Shown here one piece after another: positions 4,184-56,501 of a stretch of DNA of 57,195 bases. The notes below the pieces were generated by a model that was not told the origin of the DNA, did no database searches, and saw only the letters and a list, made by a program, of their open reading frames with translations. A program made the translations under genes and the position numbers. Origin of the DNA: Candidatus Bathyarchaeia archaeon (GTDB lineage: Archaea > Thermoproteota > Bathyarchaeia > Bathyarchaeales > Bathycorpusculaceae). The stretch lies in assembly GCA_050012755.1 (NCBI GenBank), contig JBEKGO010000009.1:1-57195 (forward strand), given 5' to 3'. Numbering within the stretch: position 1 is the stretch's first letter; the number at the start of each line of letters is the position of its first letter.

Positions 4184-4379
4184 AAAAAACCCAATTGATT
4201 ATTCAGACATAGTTATACAAAAACTTTGTCCTTAGATGTTTATGTGATGCACTAACGATTTGAAGGGCTTCAAAGACAAAGAAATCTGCTGAAGGAACTC
4301 ATTTTTGGCGGCATCAACATAAAAGAACTATACATAAGAAACAACTTGCACAAAGAAAGAGAACAATAAAGACAATGTT

Positions 4380-6010: not shown

Positions 6011-6021
6011 GGCGAGGCAAA

Positions 6022-7332: not shown

Positions 7333-7337
7333 TTAGC

Positions 7338-8537
7338 ATGCATCTGACAGAAAAAGAGCATAAAATGCTGGACGGCGATGAAGGCTACGCTGTCCAGAAA
7401 AGCATGGAAATTCTCGTCGCCCTCGGCGACATATTCGGCGCAAAAAGCTTAATCAAAGTTGGCAGCGTCCAAGTCGCAGGAGTATCCTACCACAACCTAG
7501 GCGACGCAGGCTTAGAATTCCTTAACGAGTTAGCCAAAGACGGCAGAGTAAAAGTGCTAACCACCCTAAATCCTGCAGGAATGGACCTAGAAAATTGGCA
7601 ACAACTAGGAATCAGCCCAGAATTTGCCGAAAAACAAAATCTTGTAATCGATGCTTTTAAACGTATGGGCATACTTACCAGCTGCACATGCACGCCTTAC
7701 TTGATTGGCAATTTGCCAATCTACGGCGAACACGTCGCATGGTCTGAATCATCAGCGGTTACATTTGCAAACTCGGTGCTTGGCGCAAAAACGAATCGTG
7801 AAGGCGGCCCCTCGGCATTGGCAGCCGCTTTTGTTGGCAAAACACCCTGCTATGGGTTGCATTTGGATGAGAACAGAGTCCCCGATGTCCACGCGCAAGT
7901 CAATTCACCTTTATCAAAGCTTTCAGATTGGGGAGCATTGGGCTATGCGATTGGCAAAAAGGCAGAAAACAAAATCCCATACATCACAGGCATAAAAGCG
8001 GCTGAACTGGACGAGCTCAAATCGTTCTGTGCTTCCGTTGTAACTTATGGCGCAAAACCACTCTTTTACATAAAAGGCATAACACCTGGAGCCGAATTGC
8101 AAACTCAACCCAAAGAGAGTATGTCAATCGAGCAAAGTGACATCAAAAATGCTTACGACAACATTAACGATGAAGTAAGCGATATTGAACTTGTCTGCGT
8201 CGGTTGCCCACATTGTTCAATTAACGAAATCGCCAAAGTTGCTGAGCTGCTCAAAGGCAAAAAGGTGGCTGAAGGCACAGAATTTTGGGTTGCCACTTCA
8301 AGAACGGCTAAGCAGCTGGCAGATAAACGAGGCTACACCCAAGCCATTGAAGCGGCTGGAGCCAAATTTGCCTGCGACACGTGCATGGCAGTTGCACCAC
8401 TTAAAGGAAGGTTTAAATCGTTAGCAACAACCTCAGCTAAAGGCTGTTTCTACTCGAGACAGAATAACATGAAAACAAAAATGGGCAGCATCGAAGAATG
8501 TGTACAGGCAGCGGTGACCGGAAAATGGAACAGCTAA
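7338..8537 (+). CDS. Aconitase X large subunit (DUF521), phosphomevalonate dehydratase large subunit
   Basis: [42 protein letters not shown] motifs; operon context. Confidence 0.92.
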
Positions 8538-8911
8538 AAGGCAGATTAATATCAAAAGGCAAAGGCGAAGGAGAAGCCCTCGTCACATCACAGCCCATAT
8601 CCTTCTACGGCGGCGTAGATCCGAACACCGGTATCGTCATCGAAAAAGGACACGAACTCCAAGGACAAAGCATCAAAGATAAAATCCTCGTTTTCCCACA
8701 AGGTAAAGGTTCAACCGTCGGCTCCTACACACTCTATCGAATGAAGAGAAACGGCACAGCCCCAGCAGGTATGATAAACAAAGAATGCGAAACCATCGTT
8801 GCAGTTGGCGCCATCATCAGCGAAATTCCATGCGTCGACAAAATTGACATCTCTAAAATCAAAACAGGCGTCAAAGTCGCAGTAGAAAATGGCATTGTAA
8901 AGATTTTTTAG
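8525..8911 (+). CDS. Aconitase X small (swivel) subunit (DUF126), phosphomevalonate dehydratase small subunit
   Basis: [26 protein letters not shown]; overlaps the large-subunit stop. Confidence 0.92.
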
Positions 8912-9015
8912 TTGTTTTTTCTCAACTTCTGTTTAAGCATAGATTTGCCTTAATTCTAATATCGGTAATGCTTTTCAATAAGTGCTCTAATATCAAATGT
9001 AAAGGTGCAAAGAAA

Positions 9016-9819
9016 TTGAATGAGGCGAAACCAGTAATCCTAAAAATCGGCGGTTCAGCCATCACCGACAAAACAGAACAATTAGCCGCAAAAACCGAAA
9101 TCATAAATCGCCTAGCGGAAGAAATCAAGCGGGCAGACCTTGATAACTTGATTATTGTGCATGGCGGCGGCAGTTTTGGTCACCCCACCGCGGCAAAGTA
9201 TGGCATAAAAGATGGGTACAAAGAAGACCCAACACAAAAACTTGGGTTTGCCGAAACTCACCATGTTATGACTGTTCTTAACGGCTTAGTTATGGATGCT
9301 CTAATTTGGCACGAAGTTCCTGCCATAAGCGTTGCGCCGTCATGTTGCGTCATGACTAATAACGGTAAGATAAAATATTTTGATGAAACGGTGCTTAAAT
9401 CGATGCAGAAAATGGCGTTTACGCCTGTCATGTATGGCGATGCAGTTTTAGATGATAAGTTAGGTTTCACCGTTCTTTCTGGCGACCAACTGGTTGCTTA
9501 CTTAGCCATCAAATACAAGGCTTCAAAAATTGTTGTAGGCGTTGACACAGACGGCTTATTTGATGCAGACCCCAAAACTAACCCCAACGCTAAACCCTAC
9601 AAGCACTTAACCCTAGCAGAGTTAAAGGGTATTCAGCCTAAGATCGGCAAAACAGCAGGCACAGACGTTACCGGCGGCATGGCAGGCAAAATCGCTGAGC
9701 TTATCCCGGCCATTGAACAGGGTGTTCGTGTAACGATTACTGGCGCCACAAAAGGACTATCTATTTACAGGGCATTAACAGATCAAAGCGTCTTAGGCAC
9801 TGAAATTGAGAAGGCGTAA
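9016..9819 (+). CDS. ipk: Isopentenyl phosphate kinase
   Basis: LKIGGSAITDK, VHGGGSFGH, LSGD, DVTGGMAGK. Confidence 0.93.
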   Translation: MNEAKPVILKIGGSAITDKTEQLAAKTEIINRLAEEIKRADLDNLIIVHGGGSFGHPTAAKYGIKDGYKEDPTQKLGFAETHHVMTVLNGLVMDALIWHEVPAISVAPSCCVMTNNGKIKYFDETVLKSMQKMAFTPVMYGDAVLDDKLGFTVLSGDQLVAYLAIKYKASKIVVGVDTDGLFDADPKTNPNAKPYKHLTLAELKGIQPKIGKTAGTDVTGGMAGKIAELIPAIEQGVRVTITGATKGLSIYRALTDQSVLGTEIEKA

Positions 9820-9820
9820 G

Positions 9821-10918
9821 ATGGCGGAAACAACGGGCAAACGCAAAGCAGACCACATAAAGATTTGCTTAGAAAAAAAAGCGCAAGCCAGAAAAGCTAC
9901 CGCAGGTTTCGAAGACATCCAACTGGTCCACCGAGCACTACCAGAAGTCAATAAAGAAAAAATAAGTTTATCTACCTCTTTCTTGGGGAAAGAATTTTCC
10001 GCTCCCTTGATTGTTGGCGCTATGACAGGAGGAACAGAGGAAGCAACTAAAATTAACGCTTCAATCGCCGAAGCCGTAGAAAACCTGCACCTCGGAATGG
10101 GTGTCGGAAGTCAAAGAGCTGCAATAGAGGACAAAAAATTAGAAAAAACATTTTCAGTTGCCCGCAAAAAAGCACCCACTGCCTTCTTAATTGCCAACAT
10201 TGGCGGAGCACAACTTGTCCATGGATACAGCTCAAAAGAAATCAAGAAAGCCATTGAAATGATTGATGCTGATGCGCTGGCTGTCCATTTGAACGCTTTG
10301 CAGGAAGCACTTCAGCCTGAAGGACAAACCAACTTCAAAGGCGTTTTAGCCAAAATAGGTGAAATTGCAGGCGAACTTGACAAACCTGTCATTGTTAAAG
10401 AGACAGGGTGCGGCATTTCGGGGGAGGACGCAAAATCGCTTGAAGCTGCAGGTATAAAAGCAATCGACGTCGGAGGCGTAGGCGGCACAAGTTTTGCAGC
10501 AGTAGAATACTACCGAAGTAACCAAAAAGATATGGGTGGACTTTTTTGGGATTGGGGGATCCCCACAGTAGTAAGTATTATTGAAGCAACTCAGACCGTA
10601 AAGATTCCTGTAATTGCTTCTGGCGGAGTGCGAAGCGGCTTAGATATAGCTAAATCATTAGCTCTAAACGCAAAGTTAGCCAGTGTTTCCCAGCCTGTGC
10701 TTGAGGTTGCAGTAAAAGGGGCAAAAGAAACACAGGAATTTCTTTTCCGTTTAATAGCTGAACTGCAAAATGCGATGTTTCTTGTAGGCGCTGAGAACCT
10801 TGAAGCGTTAGCTAAGATGCCTTTAGTCATAGGTGGAAAAACTTCAGATTGGCTCAACATCCGTGACTATGACACTGTTAGTTATGCGCAGAGGAGCACG
10901 TTAACATTTGAATATTGA
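9821..10918 (+). CDS. fni: Type 2 isopentenyl-diphosphate delta-isomerase
   Basis: RKADHI, AMTGG, GVGSQR, HLNALQE-x-x-QPEG, VKETG-x-G, GGTSF, ASGG. Confidence 0.95.
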   Translation: MAETTGKRKADHIKICLEKKAQARKATAGFEDIQLVHRALPEVNKEKISLSTSFLGKEFSAPLIVGAMTGGTEEATKINASIAEAVENLHLGMGVGSQRAAIEDKKLEKTFSVARKKAPTAFLIANIGGAQLVHGYSSKEIKKAIEMIDADALAVHLNALQEALQPEGQTNFKGVLAKIGEIAGELDKPVIVKETGCGISGEDAKSLEAAGIKAIDVGGVGGTSFAAVEYYRSNQKDMGGLFWDWGIPTVVSIIEATQTVKIPVIASGGVRSGLDIAKSLALNAKLASVSQPVLEVAVKGAKETQEFLFRLIAELQNAMFLVGAENLEALAKMPLVIGGKTSDWLNIRDYDTVSYAQRSTLTFEY

Positions 10919-11978
10919 AAAGTTTCTAGAAGAAAAAGCGCCTCTAGTCGACAAAACAATTGAAAAGTATATTCCTCGAAAATTCAGCAAAACCTCCATC
11001 CTCTTCAAAATTAACCCGCCAATGTACAGCTACAACCTAGAACCGCTTAACAAAGCGATTGCAGAGCCCATCTGGGACATGCTTGACCGAGGCGGAAAAA
11101 GGTGGCGACCAGCCCTATTTCTGCTCATATGTGAGGCGCTCGGAAAAGAATCAGATTATTGTTTAGATTTCTCCATTATCCCAGAAGTAATCCACAATGG
11201 CACATTAGTTATTGATGACATAGAGGATTCTTCAGAACTGCGCCGGGGCAAGCCATGTACTTACAAAATTTTCCAAATGGACATCGCCGTCAACGCTGGA
11301 AACGCGATGTACTATCTTCCGCTTCTGCCTCTGATGGCGCAAAGAGAAAAGCTTACGCCTAAAGTGCAGCGTGACGTTTACGAGGTTTATGTTCAAGAAA
11401 TGATTAACCTCAGCATGGGGCAAGCCATGGATATCGCATGGCATAGAGACCTTGCAAATGCGGATGAACTGGGGGAAGATGATTATTTGCAGATGTGTGC
11501 TTACAAAACAGGCACCCTTGCTCGAATGGCTGCGAAAATGGCGGCGGTTCTAGCAGGCGCCGACATGCCTTTGGTGGAGAAGCTGGGGCGTTTTGCCGAA
11601 AGCATTGGTGTCGCCTTCCAAATGCAAGACGACATCTTGGATTTAACAGGAGAAGAGTTTGCCAAAAAAAAGGGTGGCGTCGGACAAGATATTACTGAAG
11701 GCAAAAGAAGCCTAATGGTTATTTACGCCCTAAAAAAAGCCAACATCAACGATAAAAAGCGACTAATTGAAATTTTGAACATGCACACTTCCAACCAAGC
11801 ACTCCGCGACGAAGCAATAGCATTAATGCAAAAGTACGACGCATTCGAACACGTTAGACGCACGGCTGAACAGATGGTTGCGGAAAGTTGGAAAGAATCC
11901 GAAAAGCTTCTACCAACGCCTGAAGCTAAGGAAAAATTAAAAGAGTTCGCTGAATTCTTGATTAAAAGAAACAAATAG
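10908..11978 (+). CDS. Polyprenyl (probably geranylgeranyl) diphosphate synthase
   Basis: GGKRWRP, FARM DDIED..RRG, GQAMD, KT, SARM FQMQDDILD. Confidence 0.93.
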   Translation: MNIEKFLEEKAPLVDKTIEKYIPRKFSKTSILFKINPPMYSYNLEPLNKAIAEPIWDMLDRGGKRWRPALFLLICEALGKESDYCLDFSIIPEVIHNGTLVIDDIEDSSELRRGKPCTYKIFQMDIAVNAGNAMYYLPLLPLMAQREKLTPKVQRDVYEVYVQEMINLSMGQAMDIAWHRDLANADELGEDDYLQMCAYKTGTLARMAAKMAAVLAGADMPLVEKLGRFAESIGVAFQMQDDILDLTGEEFAKKKGGVGQDITEGKRSLMVIYALKKANINDKKRLIEILNMHTSNQALRDEAIALMQKYDAFEHVRRTAEQMVAESWKESEKLLPTPEAKEKLKEFAEFLIKRNK

Positions 11979-20127: not shown

Positions 20128-21249
20128 ATGACTGAATCAGTTCCAGACGTACCTCAGCCAAGAGAAAAATCATCCATGACTAAAAACACCTTAATGAAGT
20201 ACACACTCGTGGCACTTGCTGTTCTTGTCGGCATCTCTGCTCTTTCATGGTGGCCAACCTCCATAATTCTCGCAGCCATAGCAGTGGCAGTTGCAGTGAG
20301 CTCGGATTATGCGCTTTCTTTAGCAATGAAGTCTAAGGGACCTTTGAACACGATGTCTGCTGCTGTATTTGGATTGATTGTCGCTTTATCGTATACTCTT
20401 TCAAATCCCTCATCATACATTATGGGCACTTACTTAACTCCAAAATACCTGCCTGAACTGTTGCCAACCAAGGCGCCTTGGGCATTCGTCTACGTTGCCA
20501 TAATCGCCCTCGTTGGAGTGATTGTGTTTAAGAAACTTCAAGGAATGCTTGGGAGAAAATATGTTAACCCAGCCGCTGCGGCTAAACTTGTTGTTTTCCT
20601 TCCATTTTTGCAAACGGTCCTGCTTGCTTCAGCGCATGCAGATTCAATTTCTCTAGTTGGACCAATTGGATATCATATAGATATTCACAGTAGCAACCCA
20701 TTGTTTGGAGCCTTCGCCGGTGATGTTCAAGCATGCATGGGCAATATTTCATCGAGAGCTGGAATACTCACTGTGACACCGACTCAAATGTTTCAAACCC
20801 TTGCTCTACTAAAGTTTCATGGTTGGACAGGAGGCGCTTCAGCAATTGCCGTTATTCTGGTAGGTGTCAGCCTGTTTATCGTTGCCAGAAAATACGTTAA
20901 ATGGCGGATCACTCTATCCTACCTCGCTACCATCGTTGCAATGTCAGCTATTATGTTTGGCATTTACGGAGGCGACTTGCTATTGAGGATGGGCTTCGAA
21001 CTGTTTATTGGCAGTTCAATCTTTCTGGCGTTTTTTATGGCTACCGATCCAGCAACTACACCTTGGACTTACGTTGGACAGGTTGTTTTCGGCATCGGTT
21101 TAGGCGTGTTAACAGTTCTGATTCAAATGTACATGGGTTTTTTGGGCGGTTCCATCCTTGCCTTGATAATTATGAATCTGACCTCCCCATTACTTGACAG
21201 GATAGGAAGCAAAAAAACGTTGATTGCAACAAGTGTCCCACGCACCTAA
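20128..21249 (+). CDS. RnfD/NqrB-family membrane protein (stand-alone)
   Basis: SAAVFGL, NPA, GWTGG.S, WRI, FFMATDPATTP, N..SPLLD; about 10 hydrophobic segments. Confidence 0.85.
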   Translation: MTESVPDVPQPREKSSMTKNTLMKYTLVALAVLVGISALSWWPTSIILAAIAVAVAVSSDYALSLAMKSKGPLNTMSAAVFGLIVALSYTLSNPSSYIMGTYLTPKYLPELLPTKAPWAFVYVAIIALVGVIVFKKLQGMLGRKYVNPAAAAKLVVFLPFLQTVLLASAHADSISLVGPIGYHIDIHSSNPLFGAFAGDVQACMGNISSRAGILTVTPTQMFQTLALLKFHGWTGGASAIAVILVGVSLFIVARKYVKWRITLSYLATIVAMSAIMFGIYGGDLLLRMGFELFIGSSIFLAFFMATDPATTPWTYVGQVVFGIGLGVLTVLIQMYMGFLGGSILALIIMNLTSPLLDRIGSKKTLIATSVPRT

Positions 21250-30638: not shown

Positions 30639-31670
30639 ATGGACAACGATAGAACTGGAAGCGACCGGTATTCAAGCGAGAAAAGCACCGATTTGGGCGA
30701 ACGCAAAATAATCGAGATTCTTGCAAGCTACTTTGATCCCATGCCTAATTTGCCTGTACCCTTCGGAGATGACGTTGCCGCGGTTAATTTGGATCAAAAA
30801 CAAGTTGCTGTTCTGAAAACTGACATGCTTGTTGGTAAAACCGATGTACCGAGAAATATGAGTTTATGGCAAGCAGCCCGCAAAGCAATTATTATGAACA
30901 TTAGCGACTTTGCCTCTAAAGGTGCTCAGCCAACAGCAGTTCTTGTGTCGCTTGGCTTACCAAGAGATTTTATGCGTAAAGACATTGAAGAGATTGCCCG
31001 TGGATTAAATGCTGGAGCACGTGAATACGGCGCTTACGTTATTGGCGGCGACACAGGTGAAGCTTCAGACCTGATTATTTCAATTTCACTTTTTGGAACT
31101 GCTGAAAAAACAGCGTTAATGTTGCGCAGTGGAGCTAAGCCAGGCGATATTTTAGCGGTTACAGGATTCTTCGGCAAATCTGCGTCTGGTTTACGCTTGC
31201 TTACGGATAATTATTCTCTGTCGCCAAATCTTCGCGAGGTATTATTAAATGCTGTTTGTATGCCTAAGGCTAAGCTGAAAGAGGGGTTGGCACTTAGCCG
31301 CTCAGGCGCAGTCTCAGCTTCCATTGATTCCAGCGACGGGTTAGCTTGGAGTTTACATGAAATTGGAAAAAGGAGCGGGGTTGGTTTTACCGTTAACAGC
31401 GTTCCAGTCGCCGACGAAGTTAAGCGATTTGCAGAGTTTAACCACCTTAATCCTTTGGAACTATCACTTTACGGCGGCGAAGAATACGAGCTTGTAGTAA
31501 CAATTAAGCCAAAAGGATGGGATGATGCCGAAACTGCAGTGGAAGCAGTTGGCGGACGTCTTTTGCCAATAGGAAAAGTGACAAAAGATCGGCAAGTGCT
31601 TTTGGATGTTGACGGTCAGAAACGCGCTATTGAAGCCCGCGGATGGGAGCACTTCAAGAGCAAGATTTAG
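30639..31670 (+). CDS. thiL: Thiamine-monophosphate kinase
   Basis: GE..II, GDDVA, KTDML, NISDFAS.GA.P, GGDT, IDSSDGL, GGEEYEL. Confidence 0.95.
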   Translation: MDNDRTGSDRYSSEKSTDLGERKIIEILASYFDPMPNLPVPFGDDVAAVNLDQKQVAVLKTDMLVGKTDVPRNMSLWQAARKAIIMNISDFASKGAQPTAVLVSLGLPRDFMRKDIEEIARGLNAGAREYGAYVIGGDTGEASDLIISISLFGTAEKTALMLRSGAKPGDILAVTGFFGKSASGLRLLTDNYSLSPNLREVLLNAVCMPKAKLKEGLALSRSGAVSASIDSSDGLAWSLHEIGKRSGVGFTVNSVPVADEVKRFAEFNHLNPLELSLYGGEEYELVVTIKPKGWDDAETAVEAVGGRLLPIGKVTKDRQVLLDVDGQKRAIEARGWEHFKSKI

Positions 31671-45831: not shown

Positions 45832-46911
45832 TTGCCAAAAAATTACACTTACACCGATGCAGGAGTAAATCGCAAGCAACGCGTCGAATCTAAAAAAGCT
45901 CTAAAAAACCTGCAACAAACCTACAAATACAGCCTTTTTGGCGGCGTCATGCATCTGCCTTATGGCAATATCTTTCCAATCACAAAAAACACTTTTTTGG
46001 ACCTTGTCATCGAAGGCGTAGGCACTAAAGTTCTCCTCGCAGAGCTTGCGCAAAAATATGATACCATAGGAATAGATGCAGTTGCTATGGCAGTCAACGA
46101 TGTAATTCGGTCAGGGGCCAAACCACTCTCGATAGCAGACAACATCCATGCACAAGAAAGCAACCCTATGCTGGTTAAAGAGTGGCTGAAGGGAATCACG
46201 CAAGGCGCAGAGGAAGCAATGTGTCCAGTTACAGGTGGAGAAACGGGTGACGTTGCAGAAATAATTAGAGGCTTGACAGAAAAAGCTGGGTTTGATATGG
46301 TTGTTGCTTCTGTTGGCCAGGTTGAAAAACCAGAAATCATAACTGGAAAAAACATCAAAGCTGGGGATCCAATTATCGGTTTAGCCAGCAGTGGGTTGCA
46401 CAGCAACGGCATAACGATGGCTAGAAAAATCCTTTTCAAGCAATGGGGCGGAAAATATCAACCCAACGATAAACCAGCAGGCATAGATCGCGAAATAGTT
46501 CTTGAAGCACTTGAACCTACAAAAATCTATGTCAAACCCGTACTCAAGCTTGCCAGTGAAGTAAAAGTTAAGGCAGCAGTCCACATAACAGGAGATGCTT
46601 ACATGAAATTCAACAACCTTGCTGCAGTCTCGCCAGGCATAGGTTTCGAATTCAATAACTTCAAACCACAACCCATTTTCGGCTTAATCCAAAAAACAGC
46701 TGCAACGCTGGGCTTTACAATAACAGATGAGGAAATGTTCAAGACTTTCAACATGGGCTGGGGCTTCGGCATAATCGTTGACAAAACAGACATCGATAAA
46801 GCTATGAACACGCTTGAACAAAACAACATAAAACCTGAGATAATAGGCAAAGTAACTGACAAACAAACGGTGGAAATAAAGCATCAGGACAAAAAGTTGG
46901 TTTTAACGTAA
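45832..46911 (+). CDS. purM: Phosphoribosylformylglycinamidine cyclo-ligase (AIR synthetase)
   Basis: Y.DAGV, EGVGTK, GIDAVAM.VND, GGET, SSGLHSNG, HITG, TFNMG.G. Confidence 0.96.
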   Translation: MPKNYTYTDAGVNRKQRVESKKALKNLQQTYKYSLFGGVMHLPYGNIFPITKNTFLDLVIEGVGTKVLLAELAQKYDTIGIDAVAMAVNDVIRSGAKPLSIADNIHAQESNPMLVKEWLKGITQGAEEAMCPVTGGETGDVAEIIRGLTEKAGFDMVVASVGQVEKPEIITGKNIKAGDPIIGLASSGLHSNGITMARKILFKQWGGKYQPNDKPAGIDREIVLEALEPTKIYVKPVLKLASEVKVKAAVHITGDAYMKFNNLAAVSPGIGFEFNNFKPQPIFGLIQKTAATLGFTITDEEMFKTFNMGWGFGIIVDKTDIDKAMNTLEQNNIKPEIIGKVTDKQTVEIKHQDKKLVLT

Positions 46912-46969
46912 AGTTTTGCTTTTTTTATGACGAAAGTGTTTAAATCCTGTAGCTTAATTTAAAGGCTCT

Positions 46970-47221
46970 ATGAAATACTCCGCTAAAATAGAGGTCAGTC
47001 TTAAACCAGGCCACAGCAACCCTGAAGGAGAAACAACCGCCCATTTACTAAAAGAACTCGGCTACAAAGTCGAAACTGTTGACGTGAGCAAAGTTTACAC
47101 TGTCACTCTTGAAGCATCATCAGTGAAAGAAGCCAAGTCAAAAGCAGAAGAAATGAGCAAGCGCCTTTTAGCAAACCCAACCAAAGACAATTACACAATA
47201 ATTGTTGAGGAGCAGAAATGA
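46970..47221 (+). CDS. purS: FGAM synthase subunit PurS
   Basis: LKPG..NPEG, LLANP..D.Y. Confidence 0.95.
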   Translation: MKYSAKIEVSLKPGHSNPEGETTAHLLKELGYKVETVDVSKVYTVTLEASSVKEAKSKAEEMSKRLLANPTKDNYTIIVEEQK

Positions 47222-49599
47222 ACGCTAACCTCTACATCCACCGAAAAGCAGGCTACACACTCTGCGAAGCTAATATAACCAAAGCCACAGACCAACAGCT
47301 GATCGAAATCAGCAATGAATTAGCTTTGGGGTTAAGTTTAGATGAAATGAAAAGTATCCAAGCCTACTTTAAAGCGGAAGGTAGAAACCCAACAGATGTT
47401 GAGTTACAAACCATCAGCCAAACATGGTCAGAACACTGCTATCACAAAACCTTCAAAGGAAAAATTCTCTTAGACGGCAAAGAAATTGACAGCCTCTTCA
47501 AAACTTACATTGCAAAAGCAACAAAAGAAATCAAAGCGCCCTGGTGTTTTAGTGTCTTTGAAGATAATGCTGGTATTGTGAAATTTGACAAGGGCTATGG
47601 TATAGCTGCGAAAGTTGAAACCCACAATCACCCATCTGCTGTTGAACCTTTCGGCGGCGCAGCCACAGGCGTTGGAGGCGTAATTCGCGACATCCTCGGC
47701 GTATGGGCAGATCCAATCGCATGTACAGATGTTTTGGGCTTTGGACCATTAGATTACGATTATAACAAGTTGCCTGCAGGTGTAAAGCACCCAAAATATG
47801 TCTACATGGGCGTCACTGCAGGCATCAGCGCTTATGGAAACAATATGGGCATCCCAACCATTAACGGAGCAATATACTTCGACGAAAGCTACACAGGCAA
47901 CGTCACTGTCTATTGCGGATGCATTGGACTTTTACCATTAAGCAAATTTACAAAAAACGCCAAGCCAGAACATATAATTGTTATTGCTGGAGGCAAAACA
48001 GGACGCGACGGAATCCACGGTGTCACCTTCGCCTCAGCTGAATTAACTGAGAAATCGGAAGAAATTTCTCGTCCAGCAGTCCAAATTGCAGACCCAATCG
48101 AAGAAGAAAAGGTCAAAAGGGCAATCGTTGAAATCCGCGATTTACAATTGGCTTCGGCGACGACTGACCTTGGCGGAGGCGGTTTATCCTCAGCGATCGG
48201 CGAAACTGCAGAAAAATTCGATTGCGGAGTAACCATTGAACTTGCTAAGGTGCCTTTGAAGTATCAGGGTTTGGCTCCTTGGGAAATTTACATTTCAGAA
48301 TCACAGGAAAGAATGCTCATAACTGTGCCGCCAGAAAACCTGGAACGAGTTATGGCAGTTTTTGAAAAAGAAGACGTAGAAGCCACAGCGATAGGCAAAC
48401 TAACCACTGCACGCCGCCTGCAACTAAACTTTAACGGCAAAAAAGTTGCCGACATGGATATGGCTTTTCTGTTTACACCATGCAAAAGCATGAAAGTTGC
48501 AACCATTGAAAAGCAAACCTTCACTGAACCGCAATTTCCTGAACCACAGACCCTAACAGAAACTCTTATGCGACTTCTTTCTGCGCCTAACATCGCAAGT
48601 AAAGAAAGCGTCATTCGCACTTATGACCACGAAGTCAAAGGCAACACAGCCCTTAAGCCGTTGCAGGGAGAGTATGCTGGACCAAACGACGCCGCTGTGC
48701 TGAAACCGCTGGATGATTCGTGGAAGGGCTTGACAATTTCTTGCGGCATGAACCCAAATTATGGTAAAATAGATGTTTATTGGATGGCTGCTTCAGCTAT
48801 TGATGAGGCAGTTAGAAACAACATTGCTGTTGGCGGGAGAAGAATTGCCCTGTTAGATAATTTTACTTGGGGAAACCCTGAGAAGCCAGAGCGTCTCGGA
48901 TCATTAGTAAGAGCGTGCGAAGCTTGTTATGATTTCGCAACTGCTTTTAGGACGCCGTTTATCTCTGGAAAAGACAGTCTATACAACGAGTCTCCGCTAG
49001 GTCCTGTTACTCCGACGCTTCTAATAACTGCAGTAGGTGTAATTCCAAACCTTCAATCCACAACCTCGATGGATTTGAAAGCTCCTGGCAACCTGCTATA
49101 CATTATCGGGGAAACGTTCAATGAACTTGGCGGTTCGGAATATTACAAACTCAAAGGCTACTTAGGCGCAAGTGTACCAAAAGTGAAAGGTGCAAAAGCA
49201 AAACGCACATTCAAAGTTGTGACTAAAGCCATCGATTTAGGCTTAATCAAATCTTGTCATGACCTCTCGGAAGGTGGGTTAGCGGTGGCGGCGGCAGAGA
49301 TGGCGTTTGCAGGTGGCTATGGGTTGGAGTTGTATTTAGGTAAAGTCCCTGGCAAAGAGTTGGAGCGCAACGATTTTATTTTGTTTTCTGAATCGAATAG
49401 CCGCTTCCTTCTGGAAGTCGCAGAAAATGATAGGAAAGAATTTGAGGTTCTGATGAAGGGCAAGGGCTGTGCTCTGATCGGGAAAGTAACCAAAGATGAG
49501 AAGCTGCTTATTCAAGGATTAAACCAGAAAATAGTAGTCACTGCTTCGCTTGGAGAACTATGGCAAGCATGGAAGAAAACGTTGAGCGGGGAAGCCTAA
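47218..49599 (+). CDS. purL: FGAM synthase subunit PurL
   Basis: WSEHC.HK, ETHNHPSA.EPF.GAATG.GG..RD, SESQERM, SGKDSLYN. Confidence 0.97.
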   Translation: MNANLYIHRKAGYTLCEANITKATDQQLIEISNELALGLSLDEMKSIQAYFKAEGRNPTDVELQTISQTWSEHCYHKTFKGKILLDGKEIDSLFKTYIAKATKEIKAPWCFSVFEDNAGIVKFDKGYGIAAKVETHNHPSAVEPFGGAATGVGGVIRDILGVWADPIACTDVLGFGPLDYDYNKLPAGVKHPKYVYMGVTAGISAYGNNMGIPTINGAIYFDESYTGNVTVYCGCIGLLPLSKFTKNAKPEHIIVIAGGKTGRDGIHGVTFASAELTEKSEEISRPAVQIADPIEEEKVKRAIVEIRDLQLASATTDLGGGGLSSAIGETAEKFDCGVTIELAKVPLKYQGLAPWEIYISESQERMLITVPPENLERVMAVFEKEDVEATAIGKLTTARRLQLNFNGKKVADMDMAFLFTPCKSMKVATIEKQTFTEPQFPEPQTLTETLMRLLSAPNIASKESVIRTYDHEVKGNTALKPLQGEYAGPNDAAVLKPLDDSWKGLTISCGMNPNYGKIDVYWMAASAIDEAVRNNIAVGGRRIALLDNFTWGNPEKPERLGSLVRACEACYDFATAFRTPFISGKDSLYNESPLGPVTPTLLITAVGVIPNLQSTTSMDLKAPGNLLYIIGETFNELGGSEYYKLKGYLGASVPKVKGAKAKRTFKVVTKAIDLGLIKSCHDLSEGGLAVAAAEMAFAGGYGLELYLGKVPGKELERNDFILFSESNSRFLLEVAENDRKEFEVLMKGKGCALIGKVTKDEKLLIQGLNQKIVVTASLGELWQAWKKTLSGEA

Positions 49600-50415
49600 A
49601 TGAACCAAGAAGAAATCAAAGTGTGCATTTTACGTGTAGGCGGAACCAACTGCGACTCAGAAACTCAGCGGGCTTTTCTTGAGTTGGGCGTCCAAGCAGA
49701 GACTTTGCATGTTAACGAATTGATAAAACGTAGAAACCTGTTGGATTTTCAGGTTCTTGTTTTTCCAGGTGGCTTTTCATTCGGAGATTACGTTCGTTCT
49801 GGCGTGATTTTTGCAAGACACCTCTCAGCCAAATTGGGCAAAGAAATGAAAACGTTCATTGACGAAGGCAGGCCAATTTTGGGCATTTGTAACGGCTTCC
49901 AAATCCTTGTCGAATACGGTTTGCTTCCGGGCTTTGAAGGTATCAGCGAATACCCCGAAGCTTCGCTTGCGTCCAATAGCCAAGGTTACAAGTGCCGCTG
50001 GGTCTACCTAAAGCAAGAAAACAAGGGCAAATGCGTTTTCTCAAGCAAGGTCCCTGTCGGCAAAGTGCTCAGGATGCCTATTGCTCACGGCGAAGGAAGG
50101 CTACTGTTTCCCAAAGAGAAAGAAGAGGAAATGCTTGCACGGCTAATTGACGAGGACATGGTTGTTTTCCGTTACTGCGACAAAAATGGTCAGGTTGCCG
50201 ATGGCAAGTATCCCGATAATCCAAACGGCTCAACCTACGATATCGCTGGTATATGCAACAGGGAAGGAAACATTTTCGGATTGATGCCTCATCCAGAGAG
50301 AGCAATGTATTGGTGGCAACAACCCAATTGGACACGTGAGCAACAGATGTTGCAGTATGGAGACGGAAAACTAATTTTCCAAAGTATAATCGACAACCTA
50401 AAAAAGAGTTGCTAA
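49600..50415 (+). CDS. purQ: FGAM synthase glutaminase subunit PurQ
   Basis: GTNCD.E, PGGFSFGD, GICNGFQIL, AHGEG, NPNGS, MPHPER. Confidence 0.97.
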   Translation: MNQEEIKVCILRVGGTNCDSETQRAFLELGVQAETLHVNELIKRRNLLDFQVLVFPGGFSFGDYVRSGVIFARHLSAKLGKEMKTFIDEGRPILGICNGFQILVEYGLLPGFEGISEYPEASLASNSQGYKCRWVYLKQENKGKCVFSSKVPVGKVLRMPIAHGEGRLLFPKEKEEEMLARLIDEDMVVFRYCDKNGQVADGKYPDNPNGSTYDIAGICNREGNIFGLMPHPERAMYWWQQPNWTREQQMLQYGDGKLIFQSIIDNLKKSC

Positions 50416-50646: not shown

Positions 50647-51561
50647 CTAATAAAGAAATGCTAAATCCTTAGCGTAGGGCAAGCCTGCGCGGGCACCCAT
50701 CGTCGTAACGCTTCTGGAAGCCACAAAATTCGCTATTTGCCCACATTCGTAGAGACTTTTTTTGTTGATTAAGCCGTAGAGGAAACCTGCGCAGAAAGCG
50801 TCTCCGGCACCTGTCGTGTCAACTGCCTTAACTTTGAAAGGTTCTACTTTGAGTTGTTCTTCTGCGTCTGTAACGAAGCAGCCTTTGTCGCCAAGTTTGA
50901 CTGCGACAATTTTAACGCCCAACCCAATCATTAAATCTGCGCCTTTGCGGTAATCTGTTTCGCCTGTTAAAAGTTCAAGTTCAAAAGCGTTGGGCATCAA
51001 AACGCAAGTGCTGCGGATTATTGGTTCTATAGCTGCAAAACCTTTCTGTGCATAGACAGAGCCTGGGTCAAAGCTGATTTTAACGTCATTGGGCAGGACG
51101 GCCAAAAGTTTTTTTTGGGCGCGAAAAGATTTTTCGCCGACGAATGAGGAGAAATGCACATATTTTGTTTGAGAAAGGTAGCTGTAATTGATTTCTCGGG
51201 GTTCGATTGTGTCGTTGACGCCTGAGTTGATATATAGGGCTCTTGCACCTTTTTTGTCCACGAAGCCCATTACTGAACCACTTTTGCCTTTCGTTGCTTG
51301 AATGATGCCGCCAGTATCTACGCCTTCATTACTGAAACAATCAATTTGCAGTTTGCCTTCTCGGTCATTGGCTACTTTTCCAATGAATCCTGTTTTGCAG
51401 CCGAGCCTTGCCAATCCAACTATAGTGTTTGCGGCTGAGCCACCGCAGGCTTCCGCATATTCTTCGACGAAGCTTTCTTCTTCAGCGCCCGCGAGCTTTT
51501 GCACTTTAAATAACATATCAACGTTGAGCGCACCGAAACCGACTACATCAAATTTCGTCAT
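50647..51561 (-). CDS. PfkB/ribokinase-family kinase (EhaT-like)
   Basis: GGSAAN....ARLG, FDPG, PN..E, VKLG..G, DTTGAGDAF..GF; ATGA overlap with the ftr-like stop. Confidence 0.93.
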   Translation of the reverse strand: MTKFDVVGFGALNVDMLFKVQKLAGAEEESFVEEYAEACGGSAANTIVGLARLGCKTGFIGKVANDREGKLQIDCFSNEGVDTGGIIQATKGKSGSVMGFVDKKGARALYINSGVNDTIEPREINYSYLSQTKYVHFSSFVGEKSFRAQKKLLAVLPNDVKISFDPGSVYAQKGFAAIEPIIRSTCVLMPNAFELELLTGETDYRKGADLMIGLGVKIVAVKLGDKGCFVTDAEEQLKVEPFKVKAVDTTGAGDAFCAGFLYGLINKKSLYECGQIANFVASRSVTTMGARAGLPYAKDLAFLY

Positions 51562-52466
51562 AGAAACAATTCCTTCAACGGGATTTTATATTCACCTAGT
51601 TTACCGCCGTAGTTGCCAGCGGAAATTTTCACTACACCATCAATGCCTAAAACGGCTTCGATGCCAACTTTAGTAGCCTTTTTAACAACGTCTAAGGAGA
51701 CACCATCAAGAACTATTTCAGCTACGTACTCTACGCCCTCGGGAACAAGAGATTCTTTGCCAAGCCGTTTCTTGAGTGAAGGACAATATAGATGGTTGGT
51801 TGTTGGGCCAATCTTGGGAAAATGTGTTTCTGGTTTTGAACCTGCAGAGCAAACATCAAAGGGGGTAACAATACCCTCAACTTTATGGATTGCAGCCAAG
51901 GCGCTTTCTCCTGCTTGTTTTAATGCTTGTTTTGTTTTGCACATAACCCAAAAATTTCCGCCCATAACGCCCTTTGCATAACCGAGATAACGCTCAATAA
52001 TAAAATCAGAAACCATTAAAGGAACAACAATGACATCTTTGCCATGTCGTTTTTCAACCCATTCGTAGCCGTCTCCGCAGTGCCCCACAGTCTCCATCAT
52101 GTCCAATTTGCCCTCGGTCTTGGGTAGAGCGTCGTAGACTGCAGTAAAGGGCTTAACAAGAATGTCTTGGCGGATGCGGTAGGAAAGTTCAGTTTCGAAC
52201 TTTCTTAGTGATTGCTCGAAGGTTTTTTTGGTGTTTATTTCTCCCCAGAACTGCAAGATCGCGCCGACCCTTTTGTCAGGCGTCTCTTGTGAGGTGAGGT
52301 ACTTTTCTACTCCACCCTCAGTTCTGCCGATAACAACGGATGGCGTGGCGGTTGAATCTTCAGCGGCCTTATGCAGAATCTCTTCATCGTCTGCTGTAAC
52401 TATTAATCGGCAAAAAATGCCAGTGAACGCTTCCGCAAACGTATCCTCAATTAGCACCTTACCCAT
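51558..52466 (-). CDS. Formylmethanofuran:H4MPT formyltransferase (Ftr) homolog, EhaS-like paralog
   Basis: IEDTFAEAF, E.GVE, TPD.R.GA, GDGYE, GV.GGNF, S.GSK, TN..YCPSL, EIV.DG, ISAGNYGGKLG. Confidence 0.88.
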   Translation of the reverse strand: MGKVLIEDTFAEAFTGIFCRLIVTADDEEILHKAAEDSTATPSVVIGRTEGGVEKYLTSQETPDKRVGAILQFWGEINTKKTFEQSLRKFETELSYRIRQDILVKPFTAVYDALPKTEGKLDMMETVGHCGDGYEWVEKRHGKDVIVVPLMVSDFIIERYLGYAKGVMGGNFWVMCKTKQALKQAGESALAAIHKVEGIVTPFDVCSAGSKPETHFPKIGPTTNHLYCPSLKKRLGKESLVPEGVEYVAEIVLDGVSLDVVKKATKVGIEAVLGIDGVVKISAGNYGGKLGEYKIPLKELFL

Positions 52467-53549
52467 TTATCCAAGCCTCCCAACAGCAACTCCGCGAACC
52501 TTTTTTCTAAATTCGCTACTTTCTTTTATGAGCAATTCCATATTTTGGGCTGTTACTATTTGAGCTTTAGGCAAACCATTAGGATACACGCCTGAAAGCT
52601 GTTTAAGCAAAGCAGCATCCACTTCACTGTATTCTAATGCTGGAAAGCCCCAAGACTGCAGAGCGTTGATTGTAACTTCTTTTCCGAATTTACAGAACAA
52701 ATCGGCAATAACTGCAGTCACCAGGTTGCTTTCTGAGAGAACAGCCACTTCTGCATTCTTGACTGCATAGCTGTTACCGTTGAAAGATACTGTTAAGCCG
52801 CCGTTGTCTCGGACCAGTTTGAAGGCTTCAACGTCTGTTATGCTGTCGCCCACATACATTACATCCGCTAAATCAGCGCCCAAACGCTTTACCACATCCC
52901 GGATTGCCTCAGCCTTCTGTTCGCCGCCAACCGTCACCACATCAACGAGAAATTTGCCCACAAACATTTTAGGGATTTCGTTCCAAAAAATCTCGCCCAA
53001 ACGCTGAATAGCCACTTGATCACTGTGCGAAAAATCTTCAATGCTACTTGCTTCTTTGGGAATTTCAATCAGGTGCATTTGTGAGATTTCTTGGGCTATT
53101 TTTTTTAGTTGGTCTTTTTCTTGCGGAGTGACAGCGAATTTGTCAAGGCTAACTTTTGTGCAGTACGTGTTTTTGTATGGAAATTCGATGGCTTTGCAAA
53201 GGGCTTTGATATAGTGTTGGTAACTGGTGCTAACTATGAAAGCGTCAGCTACGACTTGCATATGGTGCAGGGTGGTTCTGCTATTAGCGATTAAAATAAT
53301 GTTGTTCTCGGAAAACGCATCCATCTGCCTGTCAGTTAAACCGTACGCTTTAAGAAAAGGCAAAATGAGCTTCAAAGTGCTTCCTGCAGAATAACCGGGT
53401 TTCCGCAGAATATCGGCCAGTACATCGTCGTATTTGCTAATGTTAGTGAAAAGTTCGTCGCCGTTTGGAATAAAATTTGCTGCCAACTCAAACGCGTTGT
53501 CATTTTTTGAGATTGGCCCTTCACAATCGGAAATGAAGATACGCTTCAC
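52467..53549 (-). CDS. HAD-superfamily phosphatase-like protein (EhaR/COG4030-like)
   Basis: ISDCEGPIS.NDNAFE, ISKYDD.L, G.TLKLI.PF, IVSTSY, YVGDSITD, SFNGN.YA; GTG start 2 nt after the purD stop. Confidence 0.82.
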   Translation of the reverse strand: MKRIFISDCEGPISKNDNAFELAANFIPNGDELFTNISKYDDVLADILRKPGYSAGSTLKLILPFLKAYGLTDRQMDAFSENNIILIANSRTTLHHMQVVADAFIVSTSYQHYIKALCKAIEFPYKNTYCTKVSLDKFAVTPQEKDQLKKIAQEISQMHLIEIPKEASSIEDFSHSDQVAIQRLGEIFWNEIPKMFVGKFLVDVVTVGGEQKAEAIRDVVKRLGADLADVMYVGDSITDVEAFKLVRDNGGLTVSFNGNSYAVKNAEVAVLSESNLVTAVIADLFCKFGKEVTINALQSWGFPALEYSEVDAALLKQLSGVYPNGLPKAQIVTAQNMELLIKESSEFRKKVRGVAVGRLG

Positions 53550-53551
53550 AC

Positions 53552-54958
53552 TTAATGCCTCAAATTCTCCATGTGCTTTACGCTTTTTGCAATGTGCTGT
53601 TTTGAGGCTACGTCGGTTCGGTTCCATAATGCACCGCCAGAAATTGCTTTGGCACCTTCTTGGCTGATTTGGCGGGCTTCTTCAATGCTTTTGCCGATGC
53701 CTAAAACGCCTATTGCACGGGATTTTAAGGCGTAGTTTTTACCGTTTTTTGTTTCCATTGATCCAGGGTAAATTCGAATGTTTTTGCCGTATTTTTTGGT
53801 TAATGCATAAGCATCTGAGAGAGAAACTGGCGAGTTAAGGGCTGATTTATCTACTTGACCGGGGAACACTTCTGCGTAGCCACCGTAGTCGGGCGGAACC
53901 TTGTAGGTTAAGACTGACGCTGTCTTTTCCAACTCTATAGTTGTCAAATTTCCTTCAATCATTCGGAAACATAAGTCGACGAAGTCGTCTTTGATCAGAG
54001 CAAGGAGATTAATTATTTCTGGGTCTCCAGGTCGGCTGTTGTTTTCGAGAACTTTTATACCTTTTCCAGTGTGCATAAAAGCTAAGTAGAGAGGGACACC
54101 TCTGAGGGCGGAAGCATCTTTGATTTTTGTGCTCCAGCCTTTAAAAATTTTGTCAGCTAACAAAAGCTCCTGCTCGCATTCAGCGTCGGTCAGGAAAGGT
54201 AATTTGTCGTCGATGTCTTTGTACGAGCCCATTCCACCTGTGTTTGGACCTTTGTCGTCGTCGAAAGCACGTTTGTAGTCACGCGTATCAGGCAGCGGAA
54301 TTAAGTGTTTGCCATCACAGAAAGCCATGAAACTTGACTCTTCCCCGTCTATCTTTTCCTCAATGATAACTGAGCCATATTGGAAGTTGGACATGAAATG
54401 CTCAAAAAGTTGTTCTCGATTTGCAAAGTGGTCTCCCCAGACGCCAACGCCTTTTCCCAATGCTGGCTTATCAGGCTTAACTACAGCCTGATTATCTAAT
54501 TCATCTAGCCAATGGTAAACATCGGCTTTAATGTCTGAGTCTTTGTAATCGGCTGGGTCAAAAACTTTGAATCGTGGATTGGCTTCTGGTGCAATCTCAT
54601 CAAAAAGAACCCGCTGCTCAACTTTGCTGACTTCTATGGCGTATTGTTGCTTAGGACAAATAACAGGTATGCCTGTGTGTTTCTCAACTTGGTCGCGGAT
54701 GCCTTCAATTATGGGTTTTTCTGAGCCGACTAAAGCAAATCTGATTTTGCTCTTGTTTGCTTCTGCGAATTTGCAGATTTCCTCCACATCTAGATTCGGG
54801 ATGACAACGTGTTTGGCGGCTTTTTCCGCGTTGAATGGGTTGCGTTGTTTGTCAGCGATGTAAAGTTCAACTTGATATTTTTTGCTCTGTAGAAGCGCGT
54901 CAACCATAGCGATCTCTCTTGCACCGTAAGAAACAACCAAGACGCCTATTTTTTCCAT
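53552..54958 (-). CDS. purD: Phosphoribosylamine--glycine ligase
   Basis: GARE.A, E.SK, VVKP....GKGV, IEE..GEE.S, DYKRA.D.D.GPNTGGMGS, E.NSRPGDPE. Confidence 0.95.
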   Translation of the reverse strand: MEKIGVLVVSYGAREIAMVDALLQSKKYQVELYIADKQRNPFNAEKAAKHVVIPNLDVEEICKFAEANKSKIRFALVGSEKPIIEGIRDQVEKHTGIPVICPKQQYAIEVSKVEQRVLFDEIAPEANPRFKVFDPADYKDSDIKADVYHWLDELDNQAVVKPDKPALGKGVGVWGDHFANREQLFEHFMSNFQYGSVIIEEKIDGEESSFMAFCDGKHLIPLPDTRDYKRAFDDDKGPNTGGMGSYKDIDDKLPFLTDAECEQELLLADKIFKGWSTKIKDASALRGVPLYLAFMHTGKGIKVLENNSRPGDPEIINLLALIKDDFVDLCFRMIEGNLTTIELEKTASVLTYKVPPDYGGYAEVFPGQVDKSALNSPVSLSDAYALTKKYGKNIRIYPGSMETKNGKNYALKSRAIGVLGIGKSIEEARQISQEGAKAISGGALWNRTDVASKQHIAKSVKHMENLRH

Positions 54959-55019
54959 TAGAGACTCACCCTTAAGCAAAGAAAATAGAAGGATTGCTTA
55001 ATTTGCTTTGCCACCGCAG

Positions 55020-56501
55020 TTACGGCTGAACTTCTTCCGACTCATAGATCCTTGATTTTTCTTGATATCCAGCCAAGAATCTCTGTTTCATCGCGTCAGC
55101 CATTTTTTGTGCGCAGGGCGTTGGATACTCTCCGTTGATGCAGGCCAAGCAGAGTTGGTCTTTTGTTTGACCCGTTGCCTTCACTAACGCTTCAATGGAC
55201 TGATAGCATACGCCATCTGCACCTATGATTTCAGCTATACCTTCTGCATCATGTCTTGAACCGACAAGTTGCCCATACGTTGACATATCAATTCCGTATA
55301 AGCAAGGACCAATAATTCGTGGAAAAGTAACAAAAACGTAGACTTTTTTGGCGCCTGCCTTCCGCAATTTATCAATTATAACTTTGGTTGTATCTCCCCT
55401 AACTATGCTGTCCTCAGTTACGATAACTCGTTTTCCATCAACTTTGGAACCCAAAATGTTGATCTTCTTATCAATCGTGGAAAAGCGCTCGACGTTCAGC
55501 AGAATGAAAGCTCTCTCTGTAACATAGCGATGTCGTCTTGACGCCCGTTCCCATCTCAAACCTGAAGCTTCATGGACCCCCATCGCTGAGTCGTCTCCTG
55601 TTTCAGGCACGGAGAGAATAATGTCACTTTCTTTTACGACTTTAGGATTTTCTTTTACAATGTTTCTTCCGAAATCTTCTCGAATTTCATAAACGTATTT
55701 GCCGTTGAACCTTGAATCTGGCCTAGCAAAATAAGCATATTCAAAAGCGCAGAAGGCTGGGCGAGGATTTTGTATAATTTGGATGCGTTTGAAACCGTCT
55801 TTTGAAACGGTTACGAGTTCGCCTGGTTTTAACTCAAAATCTCTTACAAAACTGTTCATGTCGAGGCCTACGGTTTCAGAGGAGAAAGCATAAGTTTTGG
55901 CAACGGGGTCATGCCCGGCGCATAAGGGTTTTATACCATGTGGATCTTTGAAAGCGAAAAAGTCGCCGTCTCCCGTTATGCCTGTCACGGAGAATGCGCC
56001 GTCTAAACTTTCCATAACCCCTTTGGCTGCAGACGGCAGGTCTTTGCCTTGTTTTAGGGCTAAGAGCATTTTGTTACATACAATGTCAGAATCGCAACTG
56101 TAAGTAAAGTTTGGAAAGTTTTGATACATTTCTTTCTTCAGTGGCAGTGTGTTGACGATGTTGCCGTTAAATGAGAGCGCAAGTTTTATGCCATTTACTT
56201 GAGCGACGACTGGTTGGGTGCCCTCTATAATGGAGACATCGTCGCATTTACCTGAGGTTGTGTACCTCACATTGCCGATGCCTATTGATCCAGGCAGACG
56301 GCCAAACCATTCTTTTATGGCGTCATTTTTTACCTTAGGAACTAAATCCAAGTTTTTGTAGGTAAAAAATTGTTTATCACTATAAGTAAGAAATCCGTGC
56401 GATTGGTGCCCTCGATGGTTTTGAGCCCGCAACCCCCAATAAACATATGGAAAGACAGGTTGATTTTCATAGTTTATTGCGCCAAAGATACCGCAGCCCA
56501 T
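55020..56501 (-). CDS. purF: Amidophosphoribosyltransferase (Fe-S type)
   Basis: CGIFG, HRG, RYTTSG, NGNIVN, CAFE..YFARPDS, EDSIVRG.T, PCLYGIDM, CLAC..G.YP. Confidence 0.96.
   Translation of the reverse strand: MGCGIFGAINYENQPVFPYVYWGLRAQNHRGHQSHGFLTYSDKQFFTYKNLDLVPKVKNDAIKEWFGRLPGSIGIGNVRYTTSGKCDDVSIIEGTQPVVAQVNGIKLALSFNGNIVNTLPLKKEMYQNFPNFTYSCDSDIVCNKMLLALKQGKDLPSAAKGVMESLDGAFSVTGITGDGDFFAFKDPHGIKPLCAGHDPVAKTYAFSSETVGLDMNSFVRDFELKPGELVTVSKDGFKRIQIIQNPRPAFCAFEYAYFARPDSRFNGKYVYEIREDFGRNIVKENPKVVKESDIILSVPETGDDSAMGVHEASGLRWERASRRHRYVTERAFILLNVERFSTIDKKINILGSKVDGKRVIVTEDSIVRGDTTKVIIDKLRKAGAKKVYVFVTFPRIIGPCLYGIDMSTYGQLVGSRHDAEGIAEIIGADGVCYQSIEALVKATGQTKDQLCLACINGEYPTPCAQKMADAMKQRFLAGYQEKSRIYESEEVQP

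Follow-up and report, generated by a model that had tools for sequence, protein, structure and literature searches.

A 57,195-nucleotide stretch of Candidatus Bathyarchaeia archaeon DNA (assembly GCA_050012755.1, contig JBEKGO010000009.1, positions 1 to 57,195; hereafter the window) was analyzed for the function of three minus-strand open reading frames (ORFs) spanning 50647..53549. They encode a haloacid dehalogenase (HAD)-like protein, a paralog of the formyltransferase Ftr (Ftr2), and a PfkB kinase. Comparative analysis showed that this trio is a purine-pathway module, predicted to stand in for PurN and PurT. By whatever mechanism, the module very probably performs the missing conversion of glycinamide ribonucleotide (GAR) to formylglycinamide ribonucleotide (FGAR). 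The chance that the operon does so by a riboside route of dephosphorylation, formylation, and rephosphorylation was judged to be about even.

The minus-strand gene order was purF-purD-HAD-Ftr2-PfkB, and the genes were tightly packed; the trio thus lies inside a purine gene cluster. The first gene of the operon, purF (amidophosphoribosyltransferase, 55020..56501), matched TIGR01134 with 311 bits (cut-off 350) together with GATase_7. The second, purD (GAR synthetase, 53552..54979), is of a divergent subtype with GARS_N/A/C domains and a TIGR00877 score of 238 bits, below the cut-off of 288. The HAD-fold, EhaR-like gene (52467..53549; 360 amino acids; Hydrolase_3, 37 bits) is a candidate for a GAR 5'-phosphatase or a GAR-handling subunit, the EhaS-like Ftr2 (51558..52466; 302 amino acids; FTR and FTR_C) for a GAR or glycinamide-riboside formyltransferase, and the EhaT-like kinase (50647..51561; 304 amino acids; PfkB, 172 bits) for a formylglycinamide-riboside 5'-kinase. 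The gaps down the operon were 2, 0, and -4 nucleotides: the HAD start lies 2 nucleotides after the purD stop codon, the Ftr2 ATG follows the HAD stop codon immediately, and the Ftr2 stop overlaps the kinase start in ATGA. The HAD start was set at a GTG, giving 360 amino acids; a longer alternative frame from an ATG, reaching 53627, would overlap the end of purD, and the GTG was favoured because a length of 360 amino acids was shared by almost every one of the 120 closest homologs listed. Convergent with this operon, purM, purS, purL, and purQ (45832..50415, plus strand) scored 259 (TIGR00878), 73 (TIGR00302), 685 (TIGR01736), and 317 bits (NF002252), all above their cut-offs.

No hydrogenase family was detected among the window proteins scanned (11 in one scan and 47 in another), in agreement with the initial annotation, which had reported no hydrogenase gene nearby. 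The sole Complex1_49kDa-type gene of the genome sits on another contig (C25), and the window HAD homolog was not located in an eha hydrogenase operon. The trio proteins gave no match to the Formyl_trans_N (PurN) or PurT ATP-grasp families; the proposal is that they act like PurN or PurT while belonging to neither family.

Synteny was investigated in the best 80 related loci found with a 27-sequence HAD alignment. All but three of them, which were labelled otherwise, carried Bathyarchaeia-type titles, and the HAD proteins of the 80 were down to 56% identical to that of the window. The Ftr paralog directly followed the HAD gene in 80 out of 80 loci, so the arrangement is more than chance. The kinase came next in 76 loci, the four misses being at contig ends, and purD preceded the HAD gene in 75, the five misses being at contig starts. 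Upstream purF was present in 71 loci; eight of the nine misses had no room on the contig and one (L084) had room. In addition, purL was found within the locus in 58 of the 80.

The host genome (G000) consisted of 2.41 Mb in 65 contigs and was 100% complete by markers. PurN had no match in this genome, the best match to PurT reached 52 bits against a cut-off of 502, and PurH was not found in it; Mch was present. The other early purine genes are thus all present, and no known gene for the GAR to FGAR step was found; the trio would fill that slot. Two adjacent PurP-like (DUF1297) genes lie on contig C30 (19992-21631), and the second of this pair of ATP-grasp genes could in principle be the missing GAR formyltransferase, with the trio doing something else. 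The accessible text of Brown et al. (2011) leaves the function of PurP-like proteins outside cluster Ia open, and the two paralogs stand side by side in this genome. Against this, two copies also occurred in the PurT-type genomes G002, G231, G342, and G360 and in the genomes G020, G303, and G386, which have no PurD, and at least 13 HAD-bearing genomes had no PurP match at all. Across 201 Bathyarchaeia genomes, PurP copy number was independent of the presence or absence of PurN and PurT; the PurP paralog was rejected on this ground and is the least probable of the explanations considered.

The distribution of the module was determined in the same 201 Bathyarchaeia genomes, all with a completeness of at least 85%. 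The HAD gene was present in 85 genomes, a PurN-family gene (E <= 1e-10) in 87, of which 33 were above the curated cut-off, a PurT-like gene (E <= 1e-40) in 11, none above the cut-off, and PurD in 173. Exactly one of the HAD module, the PurN-family gene, and the PurT-like gene was found in 164 of the 173 PurD-bearing genomes: the HAD gene only in 76, the PurN-family gene only in 78, and the PurT-like gene only in 10. None of the three was found in 3/173. Among the 28 genomes without PurD, 21 had none of the three and 3 carried the HAD gene. The pattern followed families, with mixed states in f7, f8, f11, and f60. When 301 genomes from across the phylum were sampled, 41 had the HAD gene, and all but one weak match belonged to Bathyarchaeia. 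The PurD proteins themselves differed: those of module-bearing genomes scored about 238-272 bits, below the TIGR00877 cut-off, and those of most PurN- or PurT-type genomes 300-505 bits, with the exception of G312, in which a PurD of 397 bits occurred together with the trio.

This distribution bears on the salvage of leaked intermediates, which the initial annotation had offered as a second possibility. Under such a salvage or repair role the trio would recover dephosphorylated purine intermediates lost from the main pathway, and a nucleoside-type phosphatase and kinase would suit it. However, in the 76/173 PurD-bearing genomes where the module is the sole candidate, no PurN or PurT was found beside it, so there would be no main route to repair, and of the 94 PurD-bearing genomes with a PurN-family or PurT-like gene, 88 gave no match to the HAD gene. 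Salvage, the alternative of the initial annotation, was therefore rejected as highly improbable.

The module could also be traced through exchanges of its formyltransferase. In the genomes G317 and G313 the order was purF-purD-PurN-like-HAD-kinase, that is, a PurN-like gene occupied the place of Ftr2. The NLHP and LDEGP motifs are present in the PurN-like protein, for which E. coli PurN structures were the best solved relatives, with an alignment over residues 81-197 only and not over the N-terminal part. In G036 and G068, purF-purD-PurN-like was located apart from the HAD gene, and in G036 the kinase adjoins the HAD gene. Directly after the PurN-like-HAD-kinase cassette of G317 (L090, contig C8), a FolD-like gene was identified by translation (3338-4291, minus strand), which would supply N10-formyl-folate to the PurN-like enzyme.

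Fusions tied the same HAD family to formyl-transferring domains. P0193 is a fusion of a PurN-like domain with a HAD domain, and P0198 and P0217 are fusions of an ATP-grasp part (about 540-590 residues) with a HAD domain. The sole solved relatives of this ATP-grasp part were PurT enzymes, with a weak E of 0.013; hhalign comparison with the Bathyarchaeia PurT-like proteins gave a probability of 92% (E 7e-7), against 1-2% with PurD and with the PurK-like ATP-grasp protein of the genome. One metagenome locus with an ATP-grasp-HAD fusion was found (L103, 9001-11895, plus strand), and its neighbours were restriction-modification, helicase, and AcnX genes. P0315 (682 amino acids) was considered as a further fusion and rejected, its extension being low-complexity read-through. 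Because the HAD protein is tied to three unrelated types of formyl-transferring enzyme, it probably acts on the acceptor side rather than on the formyl donor. PurN and PurT thus share the pathway slot of the module, are distributed in a complementary way among PurD-bearing genomes, and have relatives that are joined to this HAD protein or encoded next to it; in contrast to them, Ftr2 is homologous to neither, and the module always carries, and may need, two further enzymes.

The HAD family was represented by 622 sequences at 50% identity (E <= 0.001), and related clusters in the Atlas belonged to Thermoplasmatota, Methanobacteriota, and bacterial Thermodesulfobacteriota. In the window protein, motif I is DCEGP (residues 8-12) and motif IV is GDSITD (residues 234-239), so that the DxE variant and the intact GDSITD described in the initial annotation were both recovered in the translation. 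The nucleophile Asp is present in DCEGP, and the motif has Glu at +2 and Pro at +4 compared with the HAD consensus DxDx(T/V). DxE variants of HAD motif I can be active, as in enolase-phosphatase. Motifs II-IV are represented by S107/T108, K212, and GDSITD, and the protein also has the motif STSY. Over 61 representatives, D8 was conserved in 49, E10 in 53, K212 in 59, and D239 in all 61. The C-terminal tail of the window protein (FRKKVRG..G.LG) is conserved as well, and the tail S..FRK.VRG..G.LG ends most members that keep the catalytic motifs, including the fusions. The solved relative of the window protein was AF1437 of Archaeoglobus fulgidus (PDB 1Y8A, E 4e-33). It belongs to the same HAD family, matched the HAD part of the ATP-grasp fusions with 156 bits, has a motif of the DWEGPW type where the window protein has DCEGP, and bears the PDB title 'hypothetical protein'.

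Ftr2 matched PF01913 (FTR) with about 147-149 bits and PF02741 (FTR_C) with 185 bits, and the solved Ftr chains (PDB 1FTR, 1M5H, and 1M5S) with 166-181 bits. The second Ftr of the genome (Ftr1, contig C17) scored higher on PF01913 (190 vs 149 bits) and was 36% identical to Ftr2. For the fhcD/Ftr equivalog TIGR03119, Ftr2 scored 241 bits and failed the cut-off of 292.6. In the 201 Bathyarchaeia genomes, the Ftr2 profile separated two classes, with at least 330 bits and at most 238 bits among the matches listed; the matches of at least 330 bits came from 78 genomes, each of which was among the 85 with the HAD gene. Ftr2 thus shares both Pfam domains with Ftr (EC 2.3.1.101), and it differs from that enzyme in its score below the equivalog cut-off, its separate score class, and its restriction to HAD-bearing genomes of this sample.

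The kinase belongs to the PfkB superfamily (PF00294, 172 bits), with the TGAGD motif within DTTGAGDAF. It was below the ribokinase equivalog TIGR02152 (172 bits vs 299.65) and reached no other PfkB equivalog, and its PDB matches were spread over ribokinases, fructokinase, and adenosine kinase (78-99 bits). The kinase profile matched 84 of the 201 Bathyarchaeia genomes, 80 of them HAD-bearing (80/85) and 4 not; the kinase therefore co-occurs with the HAD gene, as a general ribokinase would not be expected to. A kinase that acted first, with PfkB adding a transient phosphate to GAR, the bisphosphate being formylated, and the HAD protein removing the handle, would account equally for the co-occurrence of phosphatase and kinase. 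However, the gene order purD-HAD-formyltransferase-kinase mirrors the route in which the phosphatase acts first, and for most PfkB kinases the acceptor is a primary hydroxyl, for example a free 5'-OH; the kinase-first sequence is thus hardly probable. Adenosine kinase phosphorylates 5-aminoimidazole-4-carboxamide (AICA) riboside, a nucleoside-level handling of a purine intermediate. The proposed reaction would resemble this case in that a ribokinase-family kinase converts the riboside of a purine intermediate to the nucleotide, and would differ in that the AICA riboside case is salvage and the trio kinase would serve an obligatory de novo step.

The linkage was also found in a second phylum. 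The genome of one locus, G457, is titled Thorarchaeota; its match lay on a contig of 3.6 kb, which could be a binning error. Of 151 genomes from the phylum of G457, 26 had the HAD gene; the 25 matches other than that of G457 scored 92-380 bits, compared with 450-553 bits for full-length Bathyarchaeia matches. Among 20 loci, purD lay within about 2.2 kb of the HAD gene in 16. Two loci had the order purF-purD-HAD-Ftr2-kinase-purL-purQ-purM. In six loci, HAD-kinase-purE stood in a pur operon, with purD directly before in three of them and no formyltransferase gene at the locus. In eight loci the order was purD, a HEAT-repeat gene of 160 residues, and HAD, and no kinase was present; in one (L127) the HEAT-repeat and HAD genes occurred and purD was not within reach, and three were too short to judge. 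The motifs DLEGP and GDSITD were kept in 9/9 second-phylum HAD proteins read, and the C-terminal tail in 7/9. In five genomes tested, PurT was found in none and PurN in G507 only, so that four had neither. All five had an unlinked Ftr copy, an Ftr2 ortholog, that was 48-51% identical to the window Ftr2, compared with 34-38% to Ftr1.

The HEAT-repeat protein (155-166 residues) always preceded the HAD protein in one genome group of the second phylum, with no adjacent kinase. Its genes were located at 4044-4523 in L114, 7426-7908 in L115, 4071-4553 in L117, 7441-7938 in L125, and 2512-2976 in L127; in four of these five loci the gene lay between purD and the HAD gene.

In the riboside route, the HAD enzyme would take GAR from PurD and remove its 5'-phosphate. 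Ftr2 would then formylate the riboside at its glycinamide amine, a primary amine resembling that of methanofuran; the donor would be a Wood-Ljungdahl one-carbon (C1) carrier, either formyl-methanofuran or N5-formyl-tetrahydromethanopterin (N5-formyl-H4MPT). Finally, the PfkB kinase would rephosphorylate the 5'-OH with ATP and yield FGAR for PurL. Formyl transfer to such an amine would be near-isoenergetic by its free energies, and this ATP-driven trap would render it irreversible. HAD and kinase were retained when the formyltransferase changed, and the HAD gene stayed with purD in two phyla; HAD and kinase would accordingly form the constant core in this proposal, and Ftr2, the PurN-like protein, and the PurT-like protein would be its exchangeable formyltransferases. 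The order of dephosphorylation, formylation, and rephosphorylation put forward in the initial annotation is plausible and fits the data.

Several observations weigh against this reading. The HAD gene occurred together with a PurN-like gene in 5 and with a PurT-like gene in 1 of the 173 PurD-bearing genomes, and G507 has a canonical PurN alongside the HAD gene and Ftr2. Because the genomes are kin, the independent switches between systems are far fewer than the genome counts. A cycle of phosphatase and kinase consumes ATP, and PurL could shift the equilibrium in any case; if the partner were PurT-like, the riboside route would spend ATP twice. Some loci have no adjacent kinase, among them the second-phylum loci with purD, HEAT-repeat, and HAD genes and the single metagenome fusion locus, where no kinase or pur gene was found within 9 kb. 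In four of the purD-HEAT-HAD genomes, the best PfkB match elsewhere reached 163-179 bits, compared with 216 bits for an operon copy. One HAD clade (P0208, P0227, P0240, P0241, P0243, P0249, P0259, and P0269), whose named members are Methanomassiliicoccales, is without the nucleophilic Asp, motif IV's first Asp, and the VRG..G.LG tail, and a non-catalytic role of the HAD protein is therefore possible. Ftr2 passed the NCBIfam subfamily NF002554 (338 bits vs a cut-off of 297) and retains the Glu aligned with Glu245 of Methanopyrus kandleri Ftr, so by these features it could be an ordinary second Ftr.

Part of this evidence would suit a module that carries out the same conversion with GAR itself as the substrate of Ftr2. 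The HAD protein would then be a non-hydrolytic subunit that binds or channels GAR received from PurD, and the role of the kinase would be in the supply of ribose or nucleosides. The clade without the nucleophile and the loci without an adjacent kinase point in this direction, as do the fusions that join the HAD protein with a PurN-like or a PurT-like domain (the canonical enzymes of both types use GAR itself) and the best NCBIfam match of the kinase, which was ribokinase. On the other hand, the HAD catalytic motifs are kept in full where no candidate other than the module was found, the kinase occurs along with the HAD gene as described above, and the alignment of the HAD-associated PurN-like protein to E. 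coli PurN covers only part of its length. Direct formylation is thus less likely than the riboside route, with a chance of about one in four.

The names given to the trio come from the eha operon. Many of the 120 closest homologs listed for the HAD protein (75-92% identical) carry the JGI label 'energy-converting hydrogenase A subunit R', and the NCBI label for close homologs is 'HAD hydrolase [Candidatus Bathyarchaeia archaeon]'. According to the accessible text of Kaster et al. (2011), Methanothermobacter EhaS is annotated as Ftr and EhaT as ribokinase, and both are cotranscribed with ehaA-R, which likewise counts against a purine role. From the families HAD-Ftr-PfkB, the JGI name EhaR, and Kaster et al. 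(2011), it follows that the gene order of the window equals R-S-T; the initial annotation had stated that the same three families stand in this order, and by annotation names and literature this was borne out. Methanothermobacter EhaR/S/T, encoded by the last three genes of the eha operon, are thus of the same families and order as the trio, as known from names and literature. Unlike them, the window trio is coupled to purF-purD and unlinked to hydrogenase genes.

Taken at face value, these names would place the trio outside purine synthesis, as a second Ftr isoenzyme with two enzymes of H4MPT or methanofuran synthesis, or as Eha accessories, with the proximity to pur genes being incidental. 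The cotranscription in Methanothermobacter, the passing of the Ftr subfamily cut-off, and the distance of Ftr2 from pur genes in the five second-phylum genomes would agree with such a role. However, no hydrogenase gene was found among the window proteins scanned, the distribution is complementary with that of PurN and PurT among PurD-bearing genomes, and a search for the module was negative in 21 of the 28 genomes that have no PurD (the HAD gene being present in 3). Moreover, a PurN-like gene replaces Ftr2 in situ, and the HAD gene is again linked to purD in a second phylum. A role outside purine synthesis is therefore very unlikely. The claim of the initial annotation that a nucleotide-metabolism module had been misfiled as Eha was strongly supported by the operon position, the PurN/PurT-complementary distribution, the in-situ displacement of Ftr2, and the fusions.

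With Ftr2 as the partner of the HAD protein and the kinase, formyl groups for purines would be drawn directly from formyl-methanofuran or formyl-H4MPT. If purine synthesis withdraws formyl groups from a pool refilled by Eha, cotranscription of the trio with eha in methanogens would make sense.

Published surveys describe a corresponding gap. In its accessible part, Brown et al. [quoted passage not shown] Methanothermobacter makes its own purines despite this gap. The sections of Chadwick et al. (2022) that were available describe an uncharacterised Ftr2 in the anaerobic methanotrophic archaea (ANME) of groups ANME-1 and ANME-2a/b, Archaeoglobales, Methanopyrus, and Methanothermobacter, and another section reports Archaeoglobales and Methanobacteriales to be without PurN and PurT; these sections do not link the two, and the GAR formyltransferase is still called unidentified in them. 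EhaR/S/T are not mentioned in the main text of Adam et al. (2022), without its supplements. In the literature covered, which did not extend to subscription journals and supplements, no paper was found in which GAR formylation is tied to the Ftr paralog or to EhaR/S/T, AF1437, or COG4030.

Other features of the window lay apart from the pur cluster. A run of plus-strand genes at 5069-11978 resembled an archaeal-type mevalonate/isoprenoid operon, and it held genes for a GHMP kinase, a UbiD-like decarboxylase, the large and small subunits of AcnX, an amino-acid-kinase-family protein, a dehydrogenase dependent on flavin mononucleotide (FMN) that was IDI2-like, and a polyprenyl synthetase. A protein with two DUF1508 repeats was encoded at 3200-4183 (minus strand), a lone RnfD/NqrB-family gene was located at 20128-21249 (plus strand), and a lone AIRS-domain protein was encoded at 30639-31670 (plus strand), distant from the pur cluster.

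These data name a concrete and testable candidate for the archaeal GAR formylation gap. Archaea, and possibly some bacteria, may have a third route to purine C8 that operates at the nucleoside level, with a core formed by a GAR 5'-phosphatase of the EhaR family and a formylglycinamide-riboside kinase of the EhaT family, and with interchangeable formyltransferases; extended this far beyond the window, the proposal is tentative and somewhat less probable than the riboside route in the operon itself. If the assignment is true, the public annotation of three 'hydrogenase subunits' (EhaR/S/T) would be reassigned, and metabolic models would no longer show a gap at GAR formylation for methanogens, ANME, Bathyarchaeia, and Asgard archaea. 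The C1 carriers of the Wood-Ljungdahl and methanogenic pathways would be linked directly to nucleotide synthesis, possibly through an unusual scheme in which an intermediate loses its phosphate before a group transfer and regains it afterwards.

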